In this document: positions 3,146 through 46,302 of the stretch, in pieces
Position numbering within the stretch: position 1 is the first letter of the stretch
Layout of the letters: the number at the start of each line of letters is the position of its first letter
Assembly: GCA_035476275.1 (NCBI GenBank)
Contig: DATILR010000391.1
Span: 63 to 64,062, forward strand
Direction of reading: 5' to 3'
DNA length: 64,000 nt
Source of the DNA: Candidatus Binatus sp.
Lineage (GTDB): Bacteria; Desulfobacterota; Binatia; DP-6
Notes under the pieces: generated by a model
Told to the model about the DNA's origin: nothing
The model's database searches: none
What the model saw: only the letters and a program-made list of their open reading frames with translations
Made by a program: the position numbers and the translations under genes

Positions 3146-3906
3146 TCGGCGAGCGCGCGCCCCGGATCGGGACGCTCCATGAACGCCTCTCCCACGAGGA
3201 CGGCACGCGCCCCTGCCGCTTGCATCCGGTGCAGATCCGCGGGCGACCGGATGCCGCTCTCCGCCACCAGCAGGGCCCCGACCGGCGCCAGCGGCGCCAG
3301 GCGCTCCGTCGTGGCGAGCGTCACCGTAAAGCTCCGGAGATCGCGGTTGTTGACGCCGATCAGCGTCGCGCCCTCCGCCGCGGCCCACTGGATCTCCGCC
3401 TCGTCGTGCACCTCGACCAGCACGTCGAGCTCCGCCGCCCGTGCAGCCGCGAGCAGCGCCCGCCCCTCCGCCGCGTCGACCGCCGCCACGATCAGCAGGA
3501 CCGCGTCGGCACCCCAGGCCCGGGCCTCCTCGATCTGGTAAGGATCGACCAGGAAGTCCTTCCGCAGGCAGGGCAGTCCGGACACTTCGCGCGCCAGGGC
3601 GAGATCCTCGAGCGCACCGCCGAAGAAGGCCCCGTCGGTGAGCACCGAAAGAGCCGTGGCGCCGCCGCGCGCATAGCCGCGCGCGAGCTCGGCCACGTCG
3701 TAGGCCGCCCGAATCGTCCCGCGTGACGGCGACGCACGCTTCAGTTCGGCGATCACGGCGGGAGCCCGCGCCGCCGCGAGCGCCCCGCGGAACGGCCGAC
3801 GGGGGGCGGCGTAGAGGGGCCGGTCGCGGAGGGCGCTCACCGGCGCAGCCTGGCGCCGGCCGGCCACCTCCTCCCGCTTGGCCGTCAGGATGCGGTCGAG
3901 GATCAT
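3130..3906 (-). CDS. trpC: Indole-3-glycerol-phosphate synthase
   Basis: [14 protein letters not shown]… with IGP synthase motifs (IAELKRASPS, LRKDF). Start taken at the internal ATG. ATGA overlap with the trpD stop. Confidence 0.88.
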   Translation of the reverse strand: MILDRILTAKREEVAGRRQAAPVSALRDRPLYAAPRRPFRGALAAARAPAVIAELKRASPSRGTIRAAYDVAELARGYARGGATALSVLTDGAFFGGALEDLALAREVSGLPCLRKDFLVDPYQIEEARAWGADAVLLIVAAVDAAEGRALLAAARAAELDVLVEVHDEAEIQWAAAEGATLIGVNNRDLRSFTVTLATTERLAPLAPVGALLVAESGIRSPADLHRMQAAGARAVLVGEAFMERPDPGRALAEWLCR

Positions 3907-38059: not shown

Positions 38060-38596
38060 CTACGCCGGCTCTCCGGCCTCGGCGGGGGCGCGCTTCCCGA
38101 TCGCGTCGACGAGTCGCGCGAGACGCGCCGCGGGTTCATTCAGGGTCCGCAGCAGCTGCGCCGCGGGCGCCTGGAGCAACCCGAGAAGCTGCGCCAGGAT
38201 GACCTCGCGCGCCGGCAGCGCCGCGAGCGCCTTGACACCGGCGGCGGGCAGCACCTGTCCATCGAGGACCGCGCCCTTGATCTCCAGCTTGGGCAGCTCC
38301 TCGGCGAGCTTGACCACCACCTTCGCCATGGTGACGGGATCGCGGAAGCCGATGATGAGCGCGAGCGGTCCTTCGCAGAGCGGACCGAGCGGCTCGTAGC
38401 GCGAGGCCGCGGCGGCGCGCTTGGCGAGCGTGTTCTTGGCGACGCGGCAGCGCCCGTCGATGTCGCGGATCGTCTTCCGCAGGTGGTTCATCTGGCCGGC
38501 CGTGAGCCCGCGGTATTCGGCCAGCACCGCGACCGTGGCCCGGCCGAGCTCGCCATGGAGCGTTTCCACGCTCGCGATCTTCTCGGCGCGCCTCAT
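38060..38596 (-). CDS. rplJ: 50S ribosomal protein L10
   Basis: Start refined to MRRAEKIASVE. A GGGAG SD is contributed by the repeat copy in the leader. Confidence 0.88.
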   Translation of the reverse strand: MRRAEKIASVETLHGELGRATVAVLAEYRGLTAGQMNHLRKTIRDIDGRCRVAKNTLAKRAAAASRYEPLGPLCEGPLALIIGFRDPVTMAKVVVKLAEELPKLEIKGAVLDGQVLPAAGVKALAALPAREVILAQLLGLLQAPAAQLLRTLNEPAARLARLVDAIGKRAPAEAGEPA

Positions 38597-38603
38597 GCGA
38601 ACT

Positions 38604-38650
38604 CCCGGGGGCCCGTGCGGTGCTCGCACGCGGCTTTGCCGCGCGCTCCG
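38604..38650. repeat. GC-rich structured intergenic repeat, copy A (truncated), in the rplJ (L10) leader. It overlaps the rplJ SD.
   Basis: A 22-nt exact match to copy B, followed by CGCGGC-ttt-GCCGCG, the same short-hairpin stem as in copy B. Confidence 0.55.
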
Positions 38651-38704
38651 ACCAGCCTCCCTCCCCGTGCGCAATTTGTACTCGCTGTGCTCAAGTGATC
38701 ATCC

Positions 38705-39409
38705 TCAGGCGGCGCGCGCCGTGGCGGGGTCGATCCTCACCGAAGGACCCATGGTGGTGGTGACGGCGATGCTCTGGACGTAGTTGCCCTTGGAGGCGGC
38801 GGGCTTGGCACGCAGCAGGCTGGTGAGCAACGCGTTGGCGTTGGCGACCAGCTTCTCGGCACCGAAGCTCCGCTTGCCGATCGGCACGTGCACGATGCCC
38901 GCCTTCTCGACCCGGAACTCCACCTTGCCGGCCTTCACCTCGCGGACCGCCTTGCCCACCTCGAAGGTCACCGTGCCGACCTTCGGATTCGGCATGAGGC
39001 CGCGAGGACCGAGGATCTTCCCTAGCCGACCGACCGCACCCATCATGTCGGGAGTGGCGATGGCGGTGTCGAAGTCGAGCCACTGCTCGTCCTGAATCTT
39101 CTTGGCGAGCTCGTCCGCTCCGACGTGATCGGCACCCGCTTCGCTCGCCTCCTTGGCCTTGTCGCCCTTCGCGAAGACGACGACCCGGACCGCCTTCCCC
39201 CGGCCGTGCGGGAGCACCACTGTGCCGCGCACGTTCTGATCGGCCTGGCGCGGATCGACGCCCAGCTTCACCGCGAGCTCGACCGTCTCGTCGAACTTCG
39301 CGCCGCCCTCCGCCTTCATGAGAACGTGGATCGCTTCCTCCAGCGGATAGCGGCGCGCGCGATCGATCTTCTCCGCGGCCTGTCGGTACCGCTTGCTCTT
39401 CTTTGCCAT
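38705..39409 (-). CDS. rplA: 50S ribosomal protein L1
   Basis: Start refined to [16 protein letters not shown]. Confidence 0.92.
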
Positions 39410-39417
39410 GACCCCTC

Positions 39418-39840
39418 TCACACCACGTCGAGCCCGAGGCTCCGCGCGGTACCCTCGATGGTCTTCACCGCCTGCGCCAGGTTCGACGCCGTCAGATCCG
39501 GCATCTTCAAGCGCGCGATCTCCTCGACCTGCTGGCGGGTCACCTGCCCGACCTTCTTCTTCCCCGTCTCACCCGAGCCCTTCTCGATGCCGGCGGCACG
39601 CTTGAGCAGCACCGCCGCCGGGGGGGTCTTGGTGATGAACGTGAAGGAGCGGTCCGCGTAGACCGTGATGATGACCGGAATGATGAGCCCCGCCTGCGCC
39701 TGGGTCTGCGCGTTGAACGCCTTGCAGAACTCCATGATGTTGACGCCGCGCTGCCCGAGCGCCGGCCCGACCGGCGGACTCGGGTTCGCCGCACCGGCTG
39801 GAATCTGCAGCTTGATCTCCGCGATGACCTTCTTCGCCAT
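39418..39840 (-). CDS. rplK: 50S ribosomal protein L11
   Basis: [29 protein letters not shown]…. Confidence 0.95.
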
Positions 39841-39843
39841 GCC

Positions 39844-40407
39844 CTACGCTTTCTCCACCTGCACGAAGTCGAGCTCGACCGGCGTCGCCCGGCCGAAGAT
39901 GCTGATCAGCACCCGCAGCTTGCCCTTCTCGGGCTTCACCTCTTCCACGACGCCGTTGAAGTCCTGGAACGGACCGTCGATCACCTTCACCTGCTCGCCC
40001 TGCTCGAAAAGCACCTTGGGCTTCGGCTTGACCGCACCCTCCTCCATCTGGTGCGTGATCTCGCGCACCTCGGCCTCGGAGATCGAGGGGATTGCACTCG
40101 GATCGGTCGCTCCGCCGAGGAAACCCGTTACCTTGGGCGTCGACTTGACGATGTGCCACGTCTCGTTGTTGAGGCGCATGTTCACCAGGATGTACCCAGG
40201 GAAGAACTTGCGCGACGAGGTCTTCTTCTTCCCCTTCACCAGCTCCACGACCTTCTCCGACGGAACCAGGATCTCGCCGAACAGCTGGGGCTTGCCGAGG
40301 GAACGGATCCGCTCTTCGAGAGCCGCCTTCACCTTGTGCTCGTAGCCCGAATAGGTGTGCACCACGTACCACTGCCGCTCACCACCGTTCTGCTCCTTCG
40401 TCAGCAT
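39844..40407 (-). CDS. nusG: Transcription termination/antitermination factor NusG
   Basis: Start refined to MLTKEQNGGERQWYVVHTYSGYEHKV. KOW domain at the C-terminus. Confidence 0.9.
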   Translation of the reverse strand: MLTKEQNGGERQWYVVHTYSGYEHKVKAALEERIRSLGKPQLFGEILVPSEKVVELVKGKKKTSSRKFFPGYILVNMRLNNETWHIVKSTPKVTGFLGGATDPSAIPSISEAEVREITHQMEEGAVKPKPKVLFEQGEQVKVIDGPFQDFNGVVEEVKPEKGKLRVLISIFGRATPVELDFVQVEKA

Positions 40408-40619
40408 CAGCCGAGCAGATGATGGATGACCCAGGACAGCACGAAGTCGACCAGCCCGAGATACAGTGCGACGATCACGACGCCGACGACCACGACGAGC
40501 GTCGCCCCCTGGACCTCCTTGCGCGAGGGCCAGTGCACCTTCTTGAGCTCGGCCCACGATTCCTCGAGAAACTCCCGGGAGCGCGTGACCGGTTGCTTGA
40601 GCGAGTCGAGTGCGTTCAT
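40407..40619 (-). CDS. secE: Preprotein translocase SecE
   Basis: 70 aa from MNALDSLKQPVTRSREFLEE… with a single C-terminal TM helix. Confidence 0.85.
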   Translation of the reverse strand: MNALDSLKQPVTRSREFLEESWAELKKVHWPSRKEVQGATLVVVVGVVIVALYLGLVDFVLSWVIHHLLG

Positions 40620-40632
40620 GTCGTTGGAGGCA

Positions 40633-40705
40633 CGGGTCAGGCAGGATTCGAACCTGCAACCCCCGGATTTGGAGTCCGGTGCTCTGCCGTTCGAGCTACT
40701 GACCC
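40633..40705 (-). tRNA. trnW: tRNA-Trp (anticodon CCA)
   Basis: Cloverleaf drawn by eye. Acceptor GGGTCAG/CTGACCC, anticodon loop CTCCAAA. Confidence 0.85.
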
Positions 40706-40713
40706 CCGCTGGG

Positions 40714-40866
40714 CTAGACCTTGCCCTCCTTGTGCACGGTGTGGCTCCGGCACGACGGACAGAACTTCTTGAAGGCCAGCTTGTCCGTCGTCCGCTTCTT
40801 GTTCTTCGTGCTGGTGTAGTTCTTCCGCTTGCACCCGTCACAGACGAGCGTGATCAGATCGCGCAT
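40714..40866 (-). CDS. rpmG: 50S ribosomal protein L33
   Basis: Not in the ORF track. My translation is [50 protein letters not shown]. Confidence 0.88.
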
Positions 40867-40879
40867 GGCGACACCTCGC

Positions 40880-40955
40880 TGGAGCCCACGACCGGATTCG
40901 AACCGGTGACCTCTTCCTTACCAAGGAAGTGCTCTGCCGAATGAGCTACGTGGGC
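40880..40955 (-). tRNA. tRNA-Thr (GGT), CCA encoded
   Basis: GCCCACG…CTTGGTAA…CGTGGGCTCCA. Confidence 0.85.
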
Positions 40956-40961
40956 TAAATC

Positions 40962-41050
40962 TCCTGGGGGCCCGTGCGGTGCTCGCGCGCTACGCGCGCT
41001 GCGCTCCTCCGATGCCCCCAGACCCCGCGCCGCGCGCGGCAAAGCCGCGC
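40962..41050. repeat. GC-rich structured intergenic repeat, copy B. It has a long hairpin module plus a short GCGCGGC-AA-GCCGCGC hairpin.
   Basis: Shares the 22-nt exact string gggggcccgtgcggtgctcgc with copy A. Module 1 is ~85% identical to copy C. Confidence 0.6.
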
Positions 41051-41081
41051 CCGGCTTCCACGCTGGCGCCAAGCACGTCGA

Positions 41082-41157
41082 ATGGAGCGGGAGACGGGAA
41101 TCGAACCCGCGACCCCGAGCTTGGAAGGCTCGCGCTCTACCACCTGAGCTACTCCCG
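41082..41157 (-). tRNA. tRNA-Gly (TCC), CCA encoded
   Basis: GCGGGAGTAGCTCAGGTGGTAGAGC…CTTCCAA…. Confidence 0.85.
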
Positions 41158-41188
41158 CAGATCATCGTTCGTGTCGTCACCTGAAGAA

Positions 41189-41271
<83 letters not shown>

Positions 41272-41299
41272 ACAGCGGATTCCCAACAAGGCACCCGGC

Positions 41300-41374
41300 T
41301 GGAGCCGATGGTCGGAGTCGAACCGACGACCTGCTGATTACAAGTCAGCTGCTCTACCCCTGAGCTACATCGGC
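41300..41374 (-). tRNA. tRNA-Thr (TGT), CCA encoded
   Basis: GCCGATGTAGCTCAGGGGTAGAGC…CTTGTAA…. Confidence 0.85.
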
Positions 41375-41497
41375 GGGTCGCGCCGCGCCACGACCGGGCG
41401 CTGCGTTCGAGACTTTCCCGCAACCTCCTTGGCCGTTCCGCGTCCGGAACAGCAGTGGCGAGGAGCACCAACACCCCTATCGGCGAGTAAACGCGGC

Positions 41498-41527
41498 TTT
41501 ATAGCACCGGCCATAGAGAGCAGTCAA
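41498..41527 (-). promoter_or_regulatory. Sigma-70-like promoter TTGACT-18-TATAAA, in an AT-rich islet upstream of the tRNA-Thr/Tyr/Gly/Thr-rpmG-tRNA-Trp-secE-nusG operon
   Basis: Read on the minus strand. It is the best hexamer match in the window and sits in a low-GC patch about 115 nt upstream of the tRNA-Thr 5' end. Confidence 0.45.
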
Positions 41528-41551
41528 CGAACGCGCCGTAACAACGACGTT

Positions 41552-42319
41552 TTAGGATGGCCGCCGACGGATGATGAGCTCGTAGAGGGCGATCCCGACC
41601 GCGACCCCGACGTTCAGGGACTCGACCCCCGGCTCCATGGGGATGGAGACCGCAAAGTCACAGGTGCGCCGGACCAGCGGGCGCAGCCCCTCCCCCTCCC
41701 CTCCGGCCACCAAAACGGCGCGCTCCGGCACCGAGTGCGCCGGCAGGGGCGTTCCGCCGTGGGGAGCCAGGGCCACGAGCCAGAACCCGTGCTCCTTCAG
41801 GCGCTCGAGGGCTTGGACGAGGTTGGGGACACGGACCACCGGTCGGTCGAAGAGCACCCCGGCGGCAGTAGCCACGACGACGCCGGTCACCCCGACGCTC
41901 CGGTCGCGGGGGAGGAGAATCCCACCTATCCCGAAGGCACAGGCCGTCCGCAGGATGGCCCCCAGGTTCCGTGGATCCTGGACGCCATCGAGCGCGAGAA
42001 CGCTCGGACAGCCGGGGGCGATCAGGCGATCGAGGGGCGCGTACGAGAAGCCGGCGGAAAGCGCGACGGTCCCCTGATGGTGCGGGGACCGCGCCAGGCG
42101 CTCGAGGGTGGTCTGCTCGGCGACTTCCACCGGCACGCCCCGTTCGCCGGCCGCACGCTCGATCTCCTGCTGGCGCGGGCCGCGACCCAGGAGGAGCCGC
42201 GTGCAAGGGTGTGTGCTCCGGAGCAACTCGAGCACGGGGTTGACGCCGTAGACGACGAGGCCCGGCTCGGCGTCACCCGTCGCCCATCCCCGCCTTCGGG
42301 TTGTTCGACCGGGACGCAT
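41552..42319 (-). CDS. rlmB: SpoU/TrmH-family RNA 2'-O-methyltransferase, RlmB-like
   Basis: …LDGVQDPRNLGAILRTA…, …VAGGEGEGLRP…, …SLNVGVAVGIALYE… motifs. The N-terminal ~20 aa may be an over-extension. Confidence 0.8.
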   Translation of the reverse strand: MRPGRTTRRRGWATGDAEPGLVVYGVNPVLELLRSTHPCTRLLLGRGPRQQEIERAAGERGVPVEVAEQTTLERLARSPHHQGTVALSAGFSYAPLDRLIAPGCPSVLALDGVQDPRNLGAILRTACAFGIGGILLPRDRSVGVTGVVVATAAGVLFDRPVVRVPNLVQALERLKEHGFWLVALAPHGGTPLPAHSVPERAVLVAGGEGEGLRPLVRRTCDFAVSIPMEPGVESLNVGVAVGIALYELIIRRRPS

Positions 42320-42340
42320 CCGCTACACGTTCCGCCCAGG

Positions 42341-43525
42341 GTGCCGCGGATCGTCCATCGCTACATCTTCCGTGAGATCATCGTCCCCTTCGCCCTTGGG
42401 CTCTCGCTCTTCACCTTCGTCCTCCTCATCGCACGGCTGATCAAGCTGATCGAGCTGGTGGTCAACCGGGGCGTGCCGCTCCTCGCCGTGCTCCGTCTGC
42501 TCAGCTACATCCTCCCGGCCTTCCTGGAGGTGACGCTTCCGATGGCGATGCTGCTCGCCATCCTCGTCGCCTTCGGCCGCCTCTCCGCCGACTCCGAGAT
42601 GATCGCCTTGCGGAGCTCGGGGCTGAGCCTCTACCAGCTGGTGCCGTCGGTCGCGGCCTTCGTGGTGATCGCGACCCTCCTCACCGCGGCGCTGTCCTTC
42701 TACGCTCGCCCGTGGGGAACTCGCTCCCTCAAGGGGGCGCTCTACGAGATCGCGCGCACGCGGGCGAGCGCCGGGATCAAACCGCAGGTGTTCAACGACG
42801 ACTTTCCCGGCCTGGTGATCTATACCGAGGACATCGATCCCACGACGGATCGTCTGCGACATGTCCTGGTGGCGGACGAGCGCGAGCCGGGGCAGCAGCA
42901 GACGATCTTCGCCAGCGAGGCGACGATGGTGTCCGACGAACGTCTGCTGACCGTCACGCTGCGCCTGCGGCAGGGATTCATCGCGAGCACCGACAATCGG
43001 GGGGGAGCCGACTACCAGACGGACTTCGAGACCTACGACGTCAATCTCGACCTGCGGCAGGCGTTCGCCGCTGCCCGCCACGATCGTGATCCCAAGGAGA
43101 TGTCGTTTCCTCAGGTGCGGCGCGCGATCGCCGCGAAGCGGGCGGCCGGGCAGCCCTACGTTCCGGAGCTGGTGGAGTATCACCGGAAATTCGCCATTCC
43201 GTTGGCGTGCGTGGTTTTCGGTCTGGTAGCCGCCCCCCTCGGCGCCCTGCCGGTGCGTGCGGCGCGTGCGCGTGGCTTCGCCGTGAGCCTGGTCATGATC
43301 TTCGTCTACTACATCCTCCTTTCGGGCGGGGAGGCGCTGGCGGAGCAGGAGCTCGTTCCGGTGGTGGTGGGCCTCTGGCTCCCGAACCTCCTCTTCGCCG
43401 TCCTCGGTCTCTATCTCTTCACCCAGGTCGCCGGCGAGCGGACCGTGCTCAAGCTCGAGCGTCTCCAGAGCACCGTGGAGGCTCTCAGAGGCAGGCTCCG
43501 GCTCCGGACGGAGGCCTCCTCGTGA
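42341..43525 (+). CDS. lptF: LptF/LptG-family LPS export permease
   Basis: MPRIVHRYIFREIIVPF… (YjgP/YjgQ family) with 6 predicted TM segments. A GTG start was chosen. It lies inside the spurious 848-aa ORF 40979..43525. Confidence 0.78.
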   Translation: MPRIVHRYIFREIIVPFALGLSLFTFVLLIARLIKLIELVVNRGVPLLAVLRLLSYILPAFLEVTLPMAMLLAILVAFGRLSADSEMIALRSSGLSLYQLVPSVAAFVVIATLLTAALSFYARPWGTRSLKGALYEIARTRASAGIKPQVFNDDFPGLVIYTEDIDPTTDRLRHVLVADEREPGQQQTIFASEATMVSDERLLTVTLRLRQGFIASTDNRGGADYQTDFETYDVNLDLRQAFAAARHDRDPKEMSFPQVRRAIAAKRAAGQPYVPELVEYHRKFAIPLACVVFGLVAAPLGALPVRAARARGFAVSLVMIFVYYILLSGGEALAEQELVPVVVGLWLPNLLFAVLGLYLFTQVAGERTVLKLERLQSTVEALRGRLRLRTEASS

Positions 43526-44622
43526 GGGTGGCCCGGCGGGCGCTCCTGCGGACGGTGACGCTCCACCTCGCCGGTGAGTTCCTGTGGGCCTTCGCGCTCA
43601 CCCTCGGAGCCTTCATCGTCATCTACCTGATCGCGGACTTCTTCGATCGATTCGACGGCTTTCTCCGCCACGATGCCCCCGGCGGAGCGATCCTCCGCTA
43701 CTTCCTTTTCAAGATCCCGATGGTCATCACCCAGGCCACGCCGCTGGCGGTGCTGACGGGGGGGATCGTGGGTCTCGGGCTCCTCGCCCGTCACCACGAA
43801 TTCGTCGCGCTCCGGGCGTGCGGGGTGAGCATCTGGCAGATCGCGATGCCGCTCCTCGGGCTCGGCGCCCTGATCAGTCTCGGCGCGCTCACGTGGAACG
43901 AGACCATCGTTCCCTACAGCGCCCACCGCTGGCACACGATCGAGACCATCGAGATCAAAAAACGCGCCCTGCCGACGGCCTTCACGGGACGCGACATCTG
44001 GTACCACGGGCGCGCGGGCTTCTATAACATCGAGCGCGTGAACGCGAAGCGGAACACGCTCTACGGCCTCCGCATCTACCATCTCGGCGCCGACTTCCGT
44101 CCCCAGCGCGTGCTCGAAATCGATACCGCGATTTGGGGGGAGACGGGGTGGCAGTTCTTCGGCGGACGTACCCGGCACTTCGGGCCGAACGGTGTCGAGG
44201 AATCCCCCGGCCTGCCGGAGGGGTTCACGCTGCCCGAGACGCTCGAGGACTTCCGCGTGGCCTCCGTCGAGCCCGAGGAGCTGAGCTATGCGATGCTCCG
44301 CCGCCAGATCCGCGACCTGCGTCGGAAGGGCGTCGACGTCTCGGAGAGCTGGGTGGACCTTCACCTGAAGCTCTCCCTGCCGGCCGCGAGCCTGGTGATG
44401 ATGCTGATCGCCGTGCCCCTCGCCGCCAGCGGGACGCGGCTGACGAGCGTCGCCGCGAGCGCCGGCGTGGGCGTCGTCCTCGGCTTCGGCTACTTCATGC
44501 TGATGGCCTTCTCGCGCGCGCTCGGGCAGAGCGGCGCCCTGTCACCGATGGTCGCGGCGTGGTTGGCCAACGCGCTCTTCACGCTGGTCGGTGGCTACTA
44601 CCTGCTCGGGGCCGACGCGTAG
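43522..44622 (+). CDS. lptG: LptF/LptG-family LPS export permease, second paralogue
   Basis: …VTLHLAGEFLWAFALTLGAFIVIYL… The GTG start overlaps the lptF TGA as GTGA. Confidence 0.75.
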   Translation: MRVARRALLRTVTLHLAGEFLWAFALTLGAFIVIYLIADFFDRFDGFLRHDAPGGAILRYFLFKIPMVITQATPLAVLTGGIVGLGLLARHHEFVALRACGVSIWQIAMPLLGLGALISLGALTWNETIVPYSAHRWHTIETIEIKKRALPTAFTGRDIWYHGRAGFYNIERVNAKRNTLYGLRIYHLGADFRPQRVLEIDTAIWGETGWQFFGGRTRHFGPNGVEESPGLPEGFTLPETLEDFRVASVEPEELSYAMLRRQIRDLRRKGVDVSESWVDLHLKLSLPAASLVMMLIAVPLAASGTRLTSVAASAGVGVVLGFGYFMLMAFSRALGQSGALSPMVAAWLANALFTLVGGYYLLGADA

Positions 44623-44638
44623 AGGCCCCGGAGCTTGC

Positions 44639-45691
44639 TCAGACGGCCAGCGCGGGCGCCTCGAGGCCCGTGGTCTCCGGCAGGCCGAGCAGCAGGTTGA
44701 GACACTGCACGGCCTGACCGGCCGCACCCTTGCCGAGGTTGTCGATGGCCGTCATCACCACCGCCTGCTCGGCGGGCGCGTCCCAGTACCACCCGATGGC
44801 GCAGCGGTTCGTCCCCCGGACCTCGCGCAGCTCGGGAGGGTTCCCCTCGCCTCGCAGGACGATGAACGGCTCCGTCGCGTACGTCTCGGTGAACAGCTCG
44901 GCGAGCGGCGGGCGCTTGCCGCTCACCCGGACGTACATCGTCGAGAGAATCCCGCGGCTCACCGGTACCAGGTGTGGAACGAAGACCACCGGCGCCGTGC
45001 TACCGGCCGCGTGGAGCTCCTGCTCGATCTCGGGGCGGTGCCGATGGCCGGCGACCGCATAGGGGCGAACGTTCTCGTTCACCTCGGCGAAGAGCTGCTC
45101 CACCTTCGCGCCGCGTCCCGCGCCGGTCGTCCCCGACTTGGCATCGACGATCACCGGCTCGCGGATGAAGCCGGCCCGCGCCAGCGGAAGGAGACCGAGC
45201 AGCGCCCCGGTGGGATAGCATCCCGGCGCCGCGACGAGGCGCGCGTCCGGGAGCTGAGCCCGGTGGATCTCGGGCAGGCCGTAGACCGCCTCGGCGAGCA
45301 ATTCCGGCGCCGGGTGCTCACCGTACCAGCGGGCGTACACCCGTGGATCGTGGAGCCGGAAGTCGGCCGACAGGTCGATGACACGACGGCCGCGACGAAC
45401 GATGTCGGCCACCAGCGGCGCCGCCGCCCCGTGGGGCAGAGCGCTCAGGACGATGTCCGCGGCAGCCGCGATCGCCGCCGGCTCGGGTGCCTGCAGCGTC
45501 CCCTCGACCGCGCCGCGGAGGAAGGGGTAGACCTCGGCCACCGACCGCTCCCGGTACTGCTCGGACGACAGGAAGGTGAGCTCCACCGCCGGGTGGCGCG
45601 CGAGGAGCCGCAGCAGCTCCACGCCCGTGTAGCCGGTGGCACCGAGCACGGCGACCGGCACCCGCGTCGACGTCGCCCGGCTGATGGCCAT
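44639..45691 (-). CDS. argC: N-acetyl-gamma-glutamyl-phosphate reductase
   Basis: Start refined to MAISRATSTRVPVAVLGATGYTGVELLRLL. Catalytic Cys in APGCYPT. Confidence 0.9.
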   Translation of the reverse strand: MAISRATSTRVPVAVLGATGYTGVELLRLLARHPAVELTFLSSEQYRERSVAEVYPFLRGAVEGTLQAPEPAAIAAAADIVLSALPHGAAAPLVADIVRRGRRVIDLSADFRLHDPRVYARWYGEHPAPELLAEAVYGLPEIHRAQLPDARLVAAPGCYPTGALLGLLPLARAGFIREPVIVDAKSGTTGAGRGAKVEQLFAEVNENVRPYAVAGHRHRPEIEQELHAAGSTAPVVFVPHLVPVSRGILSTMYVRVSGKRPPLAELFTETYATEPFIVLRGEGNPPELREVRGTNRCAIGWYWDAPAEQAVVMTAIDNLGKGAAGQAVQCLNLLLGLPETTGLEAPALAV

Positions 45692-45698
45692 CGCGCGC

Positions 45699-45727
45699 AC
45701 ACTACGCGAGCGATGCCAACGAGGCAA
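45699..45727 (-). promoter_or_regulatory. Candidate promoter TTGCCT-17-TAGTGT, placing the TSS at or next to the argC ATG (a possibly leaderless transcript)
   Basis: AT-rich islet ggaatcaattgcc directly upstream of argC and downstream of repeat copy C. Confidence 0.3.
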
Positions 45728-45734
45728 TTGATTC

Positions 45735-45820
45735 CGGGGGCCCGTCCAGTGCTCGGGCGCTTCGCGCCCTGCGCGCTTCCGATGCCCCCGGACCCCCGTC
45801 GCCGCCCGCGCGGCGGGCGG
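45735..45820. repeat. GC-rich structured intergenic repeat, copy C (long hairpin CCGGGGGC…GCCCCCGG plus a second short hairpin)
   Basis: About 85% identical to copy B over 58 nt. Both the outer stem (C-G to T-A) and the inner stem show compensatory changes. Confidence 0.6.
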
Positions 45821-45860
45821 CTCCCCTTACTTCGCTCGCGCGCCGTGCGCGCTCGAGACG

Positions 45861-45889
45861 TGCGGAGCGCAGCTCGGCTGCGCTCCGCA
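45861..45889 (-). terminator. Perfect 13-bp stem / 3-nt loop hairpin (TGCGGAGCGCAGC-tcg-GCTGCGCTCCGCA) immediately 3' of rpsI
   Basis: Inverted repeat seen directly in the sequence. There is no U-tract, which is common in high-GC genomes. Confidence 0.45.
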
Positions 45890-45900
45890 TACGCGAAGGT

Positions 45901-46302
45901 TCAGCGCTTCGAGTACTGGGGGCGCTTGCGGGCTTTGTGGCGGCCGTACTTCTTGCGCTCGACGATGCGGGAGTCGCGGGTGATGAAGCCGGCCTTCTTG
46001 AGCGTGACGCGGAGCTCGGGGTCGGCCTGCAGGAGCGCGCGGGTGATGCCGTGACGGATGGCGACCGCCTGAGCCGCCACGCCGCCCCCGTGCACGTTCA
46101 CATCGACGCGGTACTGCCGCTGCGTGGAGGTGACCTCGAACGGCTGGTGGACGATCATGCGCGAGGTCTCCCGCCCGAAGTAGGTGTCGAGCGGGCGGTG
46201 GTTCACCACGATCGCCCCGTCGCCAGGCTGCATGCGAACACGGGCAATCGAGCACTTGCGCTTGCCGGTGGCCCAGATGGTGGATGGATGCTCGGCGCTC
46301 AT
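45901..46302 (-). CDS. rpsI: 30S ribosomal protein S9
   Basis: …[11 protein letters not shown]… C-terminal [18 protein letters not shown]. Confidence 0.95.

Follow-up and report, generated by a model that had tools for sequence, protein, structure and literature searches.

Three GC-rich intergenic repeats in a 64,000-nt stretch of DNA from Candidatus Binatus sp. (assembly GCA_035476275.1, contig DATILR010000391.1, positions 63 to 64,062; hereafter the window) are, in our judgement and with a probability of roughly 0.72, members of a dispersed, mosaic and mobile family of palindromic repeats that resembles the repetitive extragenic palindromes (REPs) and bacterial interspersed mosaic elements (BIMEs) and occurs in Candidatus Binatia and at least one Nitrospirota genome. 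The copies, termed A, B and C, all lie on the minus strand of the window, in the rplA-rplJ, tRNA-Gly/tRNA-Thr and rpsI-argC spacers, respectively; core matches and covariance model scores place them at the very sites that had been named in an earlier reading of the sequence alone (the original prediction), which had recognized a shared element of two hairpin modules. None of the three copies is a dedicated ribosomal-protein regulator.

That the repeat is real follows from two results. A 20-nt core (GGGGGCCCGTNCNGTGCTCG) has three matches in the window at up to 2 mismatches, compared with 0.02 expected, and 0 of 100 dinucleotide-preserving shuffles reach that number; in addition, a covariance model trained solely on 71 copies from other genomes scores copy C at 91.5 bits, copy B at 86.0 bits and copy A at 24.1 bits (E 0.0014). 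Because the next match in the window reaches only 13 bits, the 64 kb contain exactly three copies. MAFFT and a repeat finder put the identity of copies B and C at 87% over 61 nt, in line with the ~85% originally estimated, and copies A and B are 93% identical across the first 30 nt. The exact string predicted to be common to A and B exists, although its length is 21 nt rather than 22.

On the strand that folds better, which in the window is the minus strand, the family unit consists from 5' to 3' of one or more perfect GC hairpins (including hairpin 1), a linker, a 58-nt second hairpin (hairpin 2) and an AT-rich tail of ~10 nt. Both predicted modules are present; on this strand 'module 2' lies 5' of 'module 1'. 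The three copies comprise the following features, with positions counted from the first letter of the window:

38602..38666, minus strand: copy A, an element in the rplA-rplJ spacer from which 60 internal nt are deleted (24.1 bits)
40964..41021, minus strand: copy B hairpin 2, the conserved 58-nt imperfect hairpin (86.0 bits)
41022..41055, minus strand: copy B linker (GCGCGGGGUC) and hairpin 1 of type 2 (GCCGGGCGCGGC-UUU-GCCGCGCGCGGC, 41029-41055)
40956..40963, minus strand: copy B 3' tail, short and AT-rich (GAGAUUUA), abutting the 5' end of tRNA-Thr
45734..45791, minus strand: copy C hairpin 2, of the CACUGG subfamily (91.5 bits)
45792..45821, minus strand: copy C linker (GACGGGGGU) and hairpin 1 of type 3 (GCCGCCCGC-CGC-GCGGGCGGC, 45801-45821)
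45835..45888, minus strand: copy C extra 5' hairpins, hp-a (45835-45857) and hp0 (45862-45888), of the type-3 composite
45723..45733, minus strand: copy C 3' tail, AT-rich (AAUCAAUUGCC), 31 nt upstream of the argC ATG (45689-45691)

Copy A had been taken for the first half of module 1 and is instead a whole element that carries the internal deletion, reading 5' GGGGAGGGAGGCUG, then GUCGGAG, the apical hairpin GCGCGCGGC-AAA-GCCGCGUGC and GAGCACCGCACGGGCCCCCGGGAG. Its 3' GGGAG (38602-38606) is the Shine-Dalgarno sequence of rplJ, and it ends 5 nt before the rplJ ATG (38594-38596). Hairpin 2 of copy B, located between tRNA-Gly (41083-41158) and tRNA-Thr (40880-40955), has the sequence CUGGGGGC AUCGGAGGAGCGCAG-GCGCGC-GUA-GCGCGC-GAGCACCGCACGG GCCCCCAG. 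Copy C likewise proved longer than predicted, being a four-hairpin composite (hp0, hp-a, hp1, hp2) that runs from 45723 up to the end of hp0 at 45888 and occupies most of the 200-nt rpsI-argC spacer. The same order of four hairpins was found again in one other locus (L142), and the hp-a/hp1/hp2 part recurs in six more (L048, L067, L068, L075, L111 and L133).

The conserved part of the unit is hairpin 2, whose 58-nt consensus is YGGGGGC-AUCGG-AG-GR-N-GC-GCAG-[GC stem with a GNA-type loop]-CGAG-CA-SY-GSA-CGG-GCCCCCR. An RNAalifold analysis of 71 distinct canonical copies gave 20 pairs, nine of them with compensatory changes, and in a 21-pair structure 96.9% of the cells are paired. The covariation score of 0.261 compares with 0.086 for shuffles, 0 of 500 of which reach it, and with at most 0.055 for slid registers. 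Specifically, the outer closing pair is CG in 37, UA in 16 and GC in 12 copies, while the two-bp inner helix alternates between G-C (46) and A-U (24) at one pair and G-C (59) and C-G (10) at the other. The compensatory changes first noticed between copies B and C are real and hold across the family. As the search pattern fixed the 3' arm of hairpin 2, some circularity might be feared; it is countered by the 5' arm, which lay outside the pattern and is nonetheless at least 90% conserved, unpaired bases included (GGGGGCAUCGGA), and by the extra copies recovered via the 5' arm, which have a near-consensus 3' arm. Across copies and lineages, hairpin 2 keeps both its pairing and specific unpaired bases. 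Of 69 copies, 61 have a better fold on the sense than on the antisense strand under RNA parameters and 47 under DNA parameters, and 63 of 71 contain a U.G wobble. These features identify the relevant strand but do not distinguish RNA from single-stranded DNA, and the same holds for the selection on pairing that the original prediction had proposed and that the covariation confirms.

The remaining parts of the unit are more variable. Hairpin 1 has a perfect GC stem and differs in sequence between copies, with at least five types and loops including GNRA, UUCG, UUU, UCA and ACAUG; several copies are without it, and the 5' boundary varies between copies. It is adjoined in most, not all, copies by GACG (CGTC on the other strand), with GCGCGG in copy B, and no GTAG is seen. 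The linker has the consensus G(A/C)(C/G)GGGGUC. In the tail, A+T amounts to 39-84% per position from +3 to +13 (at least 49% at all but one) versus ~30% further out, and TCA occurs in 19 of 69 tails. The ends carry a weak 7-nt inverted repeat (GGAGGCC ... GGCCCCC). A second architecture, with an extra hairpin in place of the 5' arm of hairpin 2, was seen in seven loci (L015, L069, L070, L097, L108, L138 and L139). As hairpin-1 type, hairpin-2 subfamily and tail class combine freely, the family reads as a mosaic in the manner of BIMEs. Tail class showed no correlation with hairpin-2 subfamily when tested, a correlation that would mark the tail as part of the element, and for this reason the 3' boundary is ambiguous; at one filled/empty site it falls directly after ...GGGCCCCCG. 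By eye, GCGCTCGAGCTGGCCGACGGGGTCC (the 3' side of hairpin 1 plus linker) resembles GCGCGCGAGCACCGCACGGGCCCCC (the 3' side of hairpin 2), and hp-a looks like the apical part of hairpin 2; partial tandem duplication of a single ancestral unit may have produced the composite.

The family extends far beyond the window. A genome-collection scan with the 3'-arm pattern returned at least 104 stretches, which together with copies from the window and from metagenome loci make 129 pattern matches. About 28 of these are chance matches inside coding regions of Streptomyces and other high-GC genomes, and the rest are true copies. The scan accounts for at least ~90 true copies in ~20 metagenome-assembled genomes (MAGs), mostly labelled Candidatus Binatia or Binatota. 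The covariance model has 84 matches at E<0.01 in 678 kb of loci, with scores of 50-97 bits for ~70 copies in other genomes. Single assemblies hold at least 18 copies (MAG DP_23), at least 14 (GB_EKS_MAG_00090) and at least 5-7 (five others), and several hairpin-2 subfamilies coexist within one genome. The only copy on a closed chromosome outside Binatia-like MAGs, among the matches listed, is a 65-bit copy in Ca. Manganitrophus sp. GAC4 (Nitrospirota, CP114561.1), with a truncated second copy adjacent. Its 350-nt spacer (L135 4930-5280) contains one canonical element, besides a truncated 5' half and a 24-nt hairpin that is duplicated (AGGATCAGGCTTT[T/G]CCTGTCCGAG), and is flanked by a transglutaminase-like gene and a gene resembling, by eye, a proteasome-type (Anbu-like) peptidase. 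MAGs labelled Gemmatimonadales and Hyphomicrobiaceae contribute matches on 2-kb contigs, and these labels may be binning errors. Four short contigs, some in unrelated taxa, consist mostly of tandem head-to-tail elements with a period of ~105-110 nt (L099, 2254 nt; L110, 2138 nt; L089; L098), which probably reflects repeat-induced assembly breaks and mis-binning. Viral contigs gave no match to the element, and literature searches on Binatia, REP, REP-associated tyrosine transposases (RAYTs) and miniature inverted-repeat transposable elements (MITEs) returned only general REP papers and no published description of the family.

With respect to gene context, which comes from a crude gene finder that relies on GC3 and had been checked against the JGI gene calls of the window, 80 of the 89 copies assessed are intergenic and 9 lie inside a predicted open reading frame (ORF). 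Sixty-eight of the intergenic copies have genes on both sides, 30 being sense and 18 antisense in co-directional spacers, 17 in convergent and 3 in divergent ones; the remaining 12 are at a locus edge, where only one side has a predicted neighbour. The copies avoid divergent spacers, which are rich in promoters. Since 18 of 48 co-directional copies are antisense, orientation relative to transcription is not fixed (30 versus 18, two-sided binomial p ~0.1 by our own estimate). Where the neighbour is on the opposite strand, its stop codon is a median of 5 nt from the 3' foot of hairpin 2 (at most 12 nt in 27 of 36 cases), whereas that of a same-strand upstream gene is a median of 83 nt from the 5' foot. 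Published GTAG and CGTC REPs are similarly found between unidirectional or convergent ORFs, at most 20 bp from 3' ends, with termini that sometimes supply stop codons (PMC3733652). A preference for AT-containing gene-border sequence could explain why the 3' foot abuts stop and start codons so closely; alternatively, selection could retain only insertions in which the AT-rich tail terminates a reading frame that enters the element.

Comparison of orthologous spacers shows that, over the time in which species diverge, copies are gained and lost, invert, duplicate in tandem, suffer internal deletions and recombine between lineages. An L10 protein identical to that of the window is found in soil-metagenome contigs only, and the closest named genome is MAG DP_23 (VBLA01), with L10 86% identical and the same synteny. 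The rplA-rplJ spacer, ~15-50 nt long, is without the element in a relative with L10 94% identical (L009), in two at 86% (L010 and L076) and in about a dozen at 74%, L011 among them. A strain with 99%-identical L10 (L008), for its part, carries a long, undeleted copy A with a type-1 hairpin 1; the 5' arm of its hairpin 2 (3790-3850) has an extra 21-nt segment, TGTCAGTTGAGCAGCCAATGG, found in no other copy. The site of copy C is occupied in L009 by a new copy of another subfamily together with a deleted remnant of a window-type copy, and in L015 the tRNA-Gly/tRNA-Thr spacer that houses copy B contains an element in the opposite orientation. An operon present in three MAG contigs is filled at the c6-c7 junction and empty at c7-c7 in L142, with the reverse in L041 and L116. 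The c6-c7 insertion has the stop codon immediately on one side and the conserved flank CGAC on the other, with no visible target duplication, which puts its 3' boundary directly after ...ACGGGCCCCCG. In L116 (4216-4250) and L041 (4988-5016) the downstream start codon (TTG or ATG) stands 7-8 nt past the foot of hairpin 2 with no Shine-Dalgarno sequence between, and aligns with the ATG of the element-free ortholog in L142. Tandem arrays (as in L042, L099 and L110) and 3'-half remnants are common. In DP_23 (L076 5795-5860, VBLA01000119.1) a tRNA-Gly(UCC) breaks off behind its anticodon arm, where it runs straight into the 3' half of an element (…AAGCTCGGG|CGCAGCGCGCGAGCACCGCACGGGCCCCCAG…), either a real element-mediated deletion that destroyed the tRNA or an assembly chimera.

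These comparisons bear directly on copy A, for which the original prediction had hinted at a part in L10 autoregulation. We consider it very improbable that copy A is an L10 (rplJ) autoregulatory leader of which B and C are related protein-binding mimics. The position of copy A directly upstream of the rplJ Shine-Dalgarno sequence would suit such a leader, and the 3' arm GAGCACUGGACGG may, by eye, bear a faint resemblance to part of 23S rRNA helix 42-44. Against this stand the spacers of all relatives outside the species, which lack the element at L10 identities of 94%, 86% and 74%, the absence of any match to L10_leader (RF00557) or another Rfam family at E<=10, and the occurrence of the same element beside dozens of unrelated genes. 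In the 74% clade the rplA-rplJ gap is ~15 nt (TGAGGACGGGAGCATG; L011-L023 around the rplJ start, for example L011 1290-1316), which therefore leaves no room for any L10 leader structure there. The fold of the whole rplA-rplJ spacer in the window, at -45 kcal/mol, is not significantly below that of shuffled sequences (z = -1.3). The related claim that copy A supplies the GGGAG of rplJ stands in part: the motif sits at the foot of copy A, and other copies have a GGAG-type tail, so the Shine-Dalgarno sequence may well be element-borne, but element-free relatives also have GGGAG before the ATG. Taken together, the comparisons suggest that copy A is a recent insertion, now forming a hairpin in the 5' untranslated region (UTR) directly upstream of the rplJ Shine-Dalgarno sequence, rather than an ancestral regulator. 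It may alter the stability or processing of the rplJ-rplL mRNA.

A broader role in RNA has more to recommend it. The strong covariation, the conserved internal-loop bases, the GNRA and UUCG loops of hairpin 1, the better folding of the sense strand, the U.G wobble, the conservation of the motif across phyla and the sense orientation of all three window copies relative to highly expressed operons would all be compatible with hairpin 2 being primarily a functional structured RNA (an mRNA stabilizer, an RNase processing site or a host-protein site) that was spread or retained through its action in transcripts. Nonetheless, this is unlikely in our view, given the 18 antisense copies among 48, the presence of both orientations of the element in the same tRNA spacer of different lineages, presence/absence differences between close relatives, the many truncated copies, the lack of a gene family consistently downstream and the lack of an Rfam match; moreover, the one-strand folding bias is equally expected of a single-stranded DNA substrate. 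More doubtful still is a reading in which hairpin 2 is the recognition element of some further protein, either a new domesticated single-strand nuclease/transposase or an RNA-binding host factor, and copies were co-opted as 5'/3' UTR modules that would set the stability, processing or translation of their neighbours, including rplJ and the tRNA cluster. It draws on the invariant unpaired bases, the conserved U.G wobble, possible tandem G.A pairs and the Binatia-Nitrospirota conservation.

Classical MITEs, which derive by deletion from an insertion sequence (IS) of the DDE type, move by cut-and-paste and are marked by terminal inverted repeats and target-site duplications, would match the size (~110-190 nt), the dispersal, the weak inverted repeat at the ends and the AT-rich flank by the 3' end. 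We regard this identity as improbable, because no target-site duplication is seen at three filled/empty comparisons, the 5' boundary varies, several copies are without hairpin 1, and neither a parent IS nor a recurrent transposase ORF is present in the loci. Finally, the similarity might be thought a product of local GC-rich low-complexity sequence, a concern voiced in the original prediction, as the window is ~70% G+C and short GC-rich words recur by chance. The shuffles of the core (3 versus 0.02 expected) and covariance scores of 86-92 bits for C and B and 50-97 bits for the ~70 copies elsewhere reduce the probability of this explanation to practically nothing.

Several known structures were also considered as identities and rejected. 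A cmscan of the window found tRNAs only, both at the gathering threshold and at E<=10, and hence, within the reach of the Rfam models, no SRP RNA, known ribozyme or L10 leader. No terminator-like site falls on the three copies, whose tails are mixed A/T without a T run, and a scan likewise placed no promoter-like site on them. By eye, and with the Rfam negatives, none of the following fits: hammerhead (CUGAUGA/GAAA), HDV-like nested pseudoknot, kink-turn (3-nt bulge plus GA/AG), SRP domain IV or integron attC (R'/R''). A window-wide scan for further palindromes was uninformative.

In terms of mechanism, the option of a REP/MITE-like mobile palindrome, one of those listed in the original prediction, gains support from the dispersed multi-copy family, its presence/absence among relatives, the inverted orientation and the REP-like placement. 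We infer that hairpin 2 with its conserved loops would serve as the recognition site of a trans-acting enzyme working on one folded strand; action on a folded single strand would maintain both pairing and loop sequence across copies. By analogy with the RAYT and IS200/IS605 systems, the most plausible candidate for that enzyme, at less than even odds, would be an HUH/Y1 transposase that is specific for single strands. The window copies themselves would be passengers of the minus-strand ribosomal-protein and tRNA transcription units, with copies B and C probably co-transcribed.

A number of observations weigh against the interpretation of these repeats as a mobile REP/BIME-like family. Neither a target-site duplication nor a clear terminal inverted repeat nor a fixed target motif was found in filled/empty comparisons. 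E. coli RayT has no match by phmmer or tblastn in ~0.7 Mb around copies (not whole genomes), apart from one weak tblastn match, in L048, to a region that encodes an ABC transporter. When 923 predicted proteins were clustered all against all, no transposase-like ORF family recurred beside copies, and the recurring neighbour families are syntenic housekeeping operons only. As these searches covered just the DNA around copies, they are weak negative evidence. Hairpin 2, at 58 nt, is longer than classical REPs, the units are arranged head-to-tail and not as inverted REPIN pairs, and one hairpin is conserved across two phyla, whereas REPs are normally lineage-specific. The covariation counts copies rather than independent events, with inner-helix changes resting on ~3-5 subfamilies, and the gene contexts inherit the crudeness of the gene finder.

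The minus-strand genes around the three copies are, in transcription order and hence with falling window coordinates, rplM, rpsI (45901-46302), copy C and argC (44639-45691); tRNA-Thr, tRNA-Tyr, tRNA-Gly, copy B and tRNA-Thr; and rpmG, tRNA-Trp, secE, nusG, rplK, rplA, copy A and rplJ (38060-38596), then rplL and rpoB. The tRNA-Thr/Tyr/Gly/Thr-rpmG-tRNA-Trp-secE-nusG-rplKAJL-rpoB cluster (40866-40880 and 40956-41082) is without tuf after tRNA-Thr(GGU), which is separated from rpmG by a gap of only 13 nt.

With this analysis a repeat family that has no Rfam entry is on record for Binatia, a phylum for which metagenomes are the only source. Such repeats break assemblies, many copies being on short contigs or at contig ends, and they can pass for regulatory RNAs, as the rplJ leader nearly did; for the window itself, the message is that the hairpin in the rplJ 5' UTR appears to be a recent insertion and not an ancestral autoregulatory site. 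The family is also a useful marker of strain-level variation, and its unusually conserved 58-nt hairpin offers a handle for finding the enzyme that moves or binds the element.

Among known systems, the closest likeness is to the REPs and BIMEs of Enterobacteria and the REPINs of Pseudomonas, which are mobilized by RAYT, a Y1 HUH transposase. Shared features include GC-rich extragenic imperfect palindromes in tens to hundreds of copies, placement in convergent and co-directional spacers near stop codons, clusters and tandem copies, hairpin-plus-linker mosaics, variation between related strains, and selection on pairing and a few unpaired bases. The present family differs in the length of hairpin 2 (58 nt versus 20-40 nt), in having no GTAG head, and in its head-to-tail hairpins and units; a single inverted pair was found, 4.7 kb apart and flanking ordinary genes. 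It differs also in that no RAYT was found in the loci around copies (whole genomes not covered) and in the conservation of the hairpin across at least two phyla.

The IS200/IS605-derived palindrome-associated transposable elements and TnpA hairpins offer another parallel, with two different subterminal hairpins, no terminal inverted repeats or target-site duplication, one strand that folds better and a short conserved tail past the hairpin (here TCA(A) in 19 of 69 copies). No tnpA/tnpB parent was found in the loci, however, and the other end has no fixed tetra- or pentanucleotide target. Compared with IS608 or ISDra2, the family also has less sequence between the foot of the hairpin and the end of the element. 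MITEs of the Correia, ERIC and RPE type resemble the family as structured intergenic repeats of 100-190 nt that are co-transcribed with their neighbours and can supply or alter 5' UTRs, but they have clear terminal inverted repeats, and Correia elements also a TA duplication, neither of which is seen here.

The CGTC-tagged REP super-family (Di Nocera et al. 2013, PMC3733652) is similar in that CGTC precedes hairpin 1 on the opposite strand in most copies (sense ...GACGGGG), and these REPs are without a known dedicated transposase and share the genomic distribution seen here (PMC3733652). Published CGTC families, mostly from Alphaproteobacteria, have 8-9 bp stems starting with A/T pairs, 4-5 nt loops and a CCA tail (PMC3733652), whereas the hairpins described here are all-GC, variable in length and joined to a second conserved hairpin. 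Against this background, the repeats of the window belong to a new family of a well-known kind of element, slightly unusual in that its second hairpin is long and conserved and that it occurs in two phyla.

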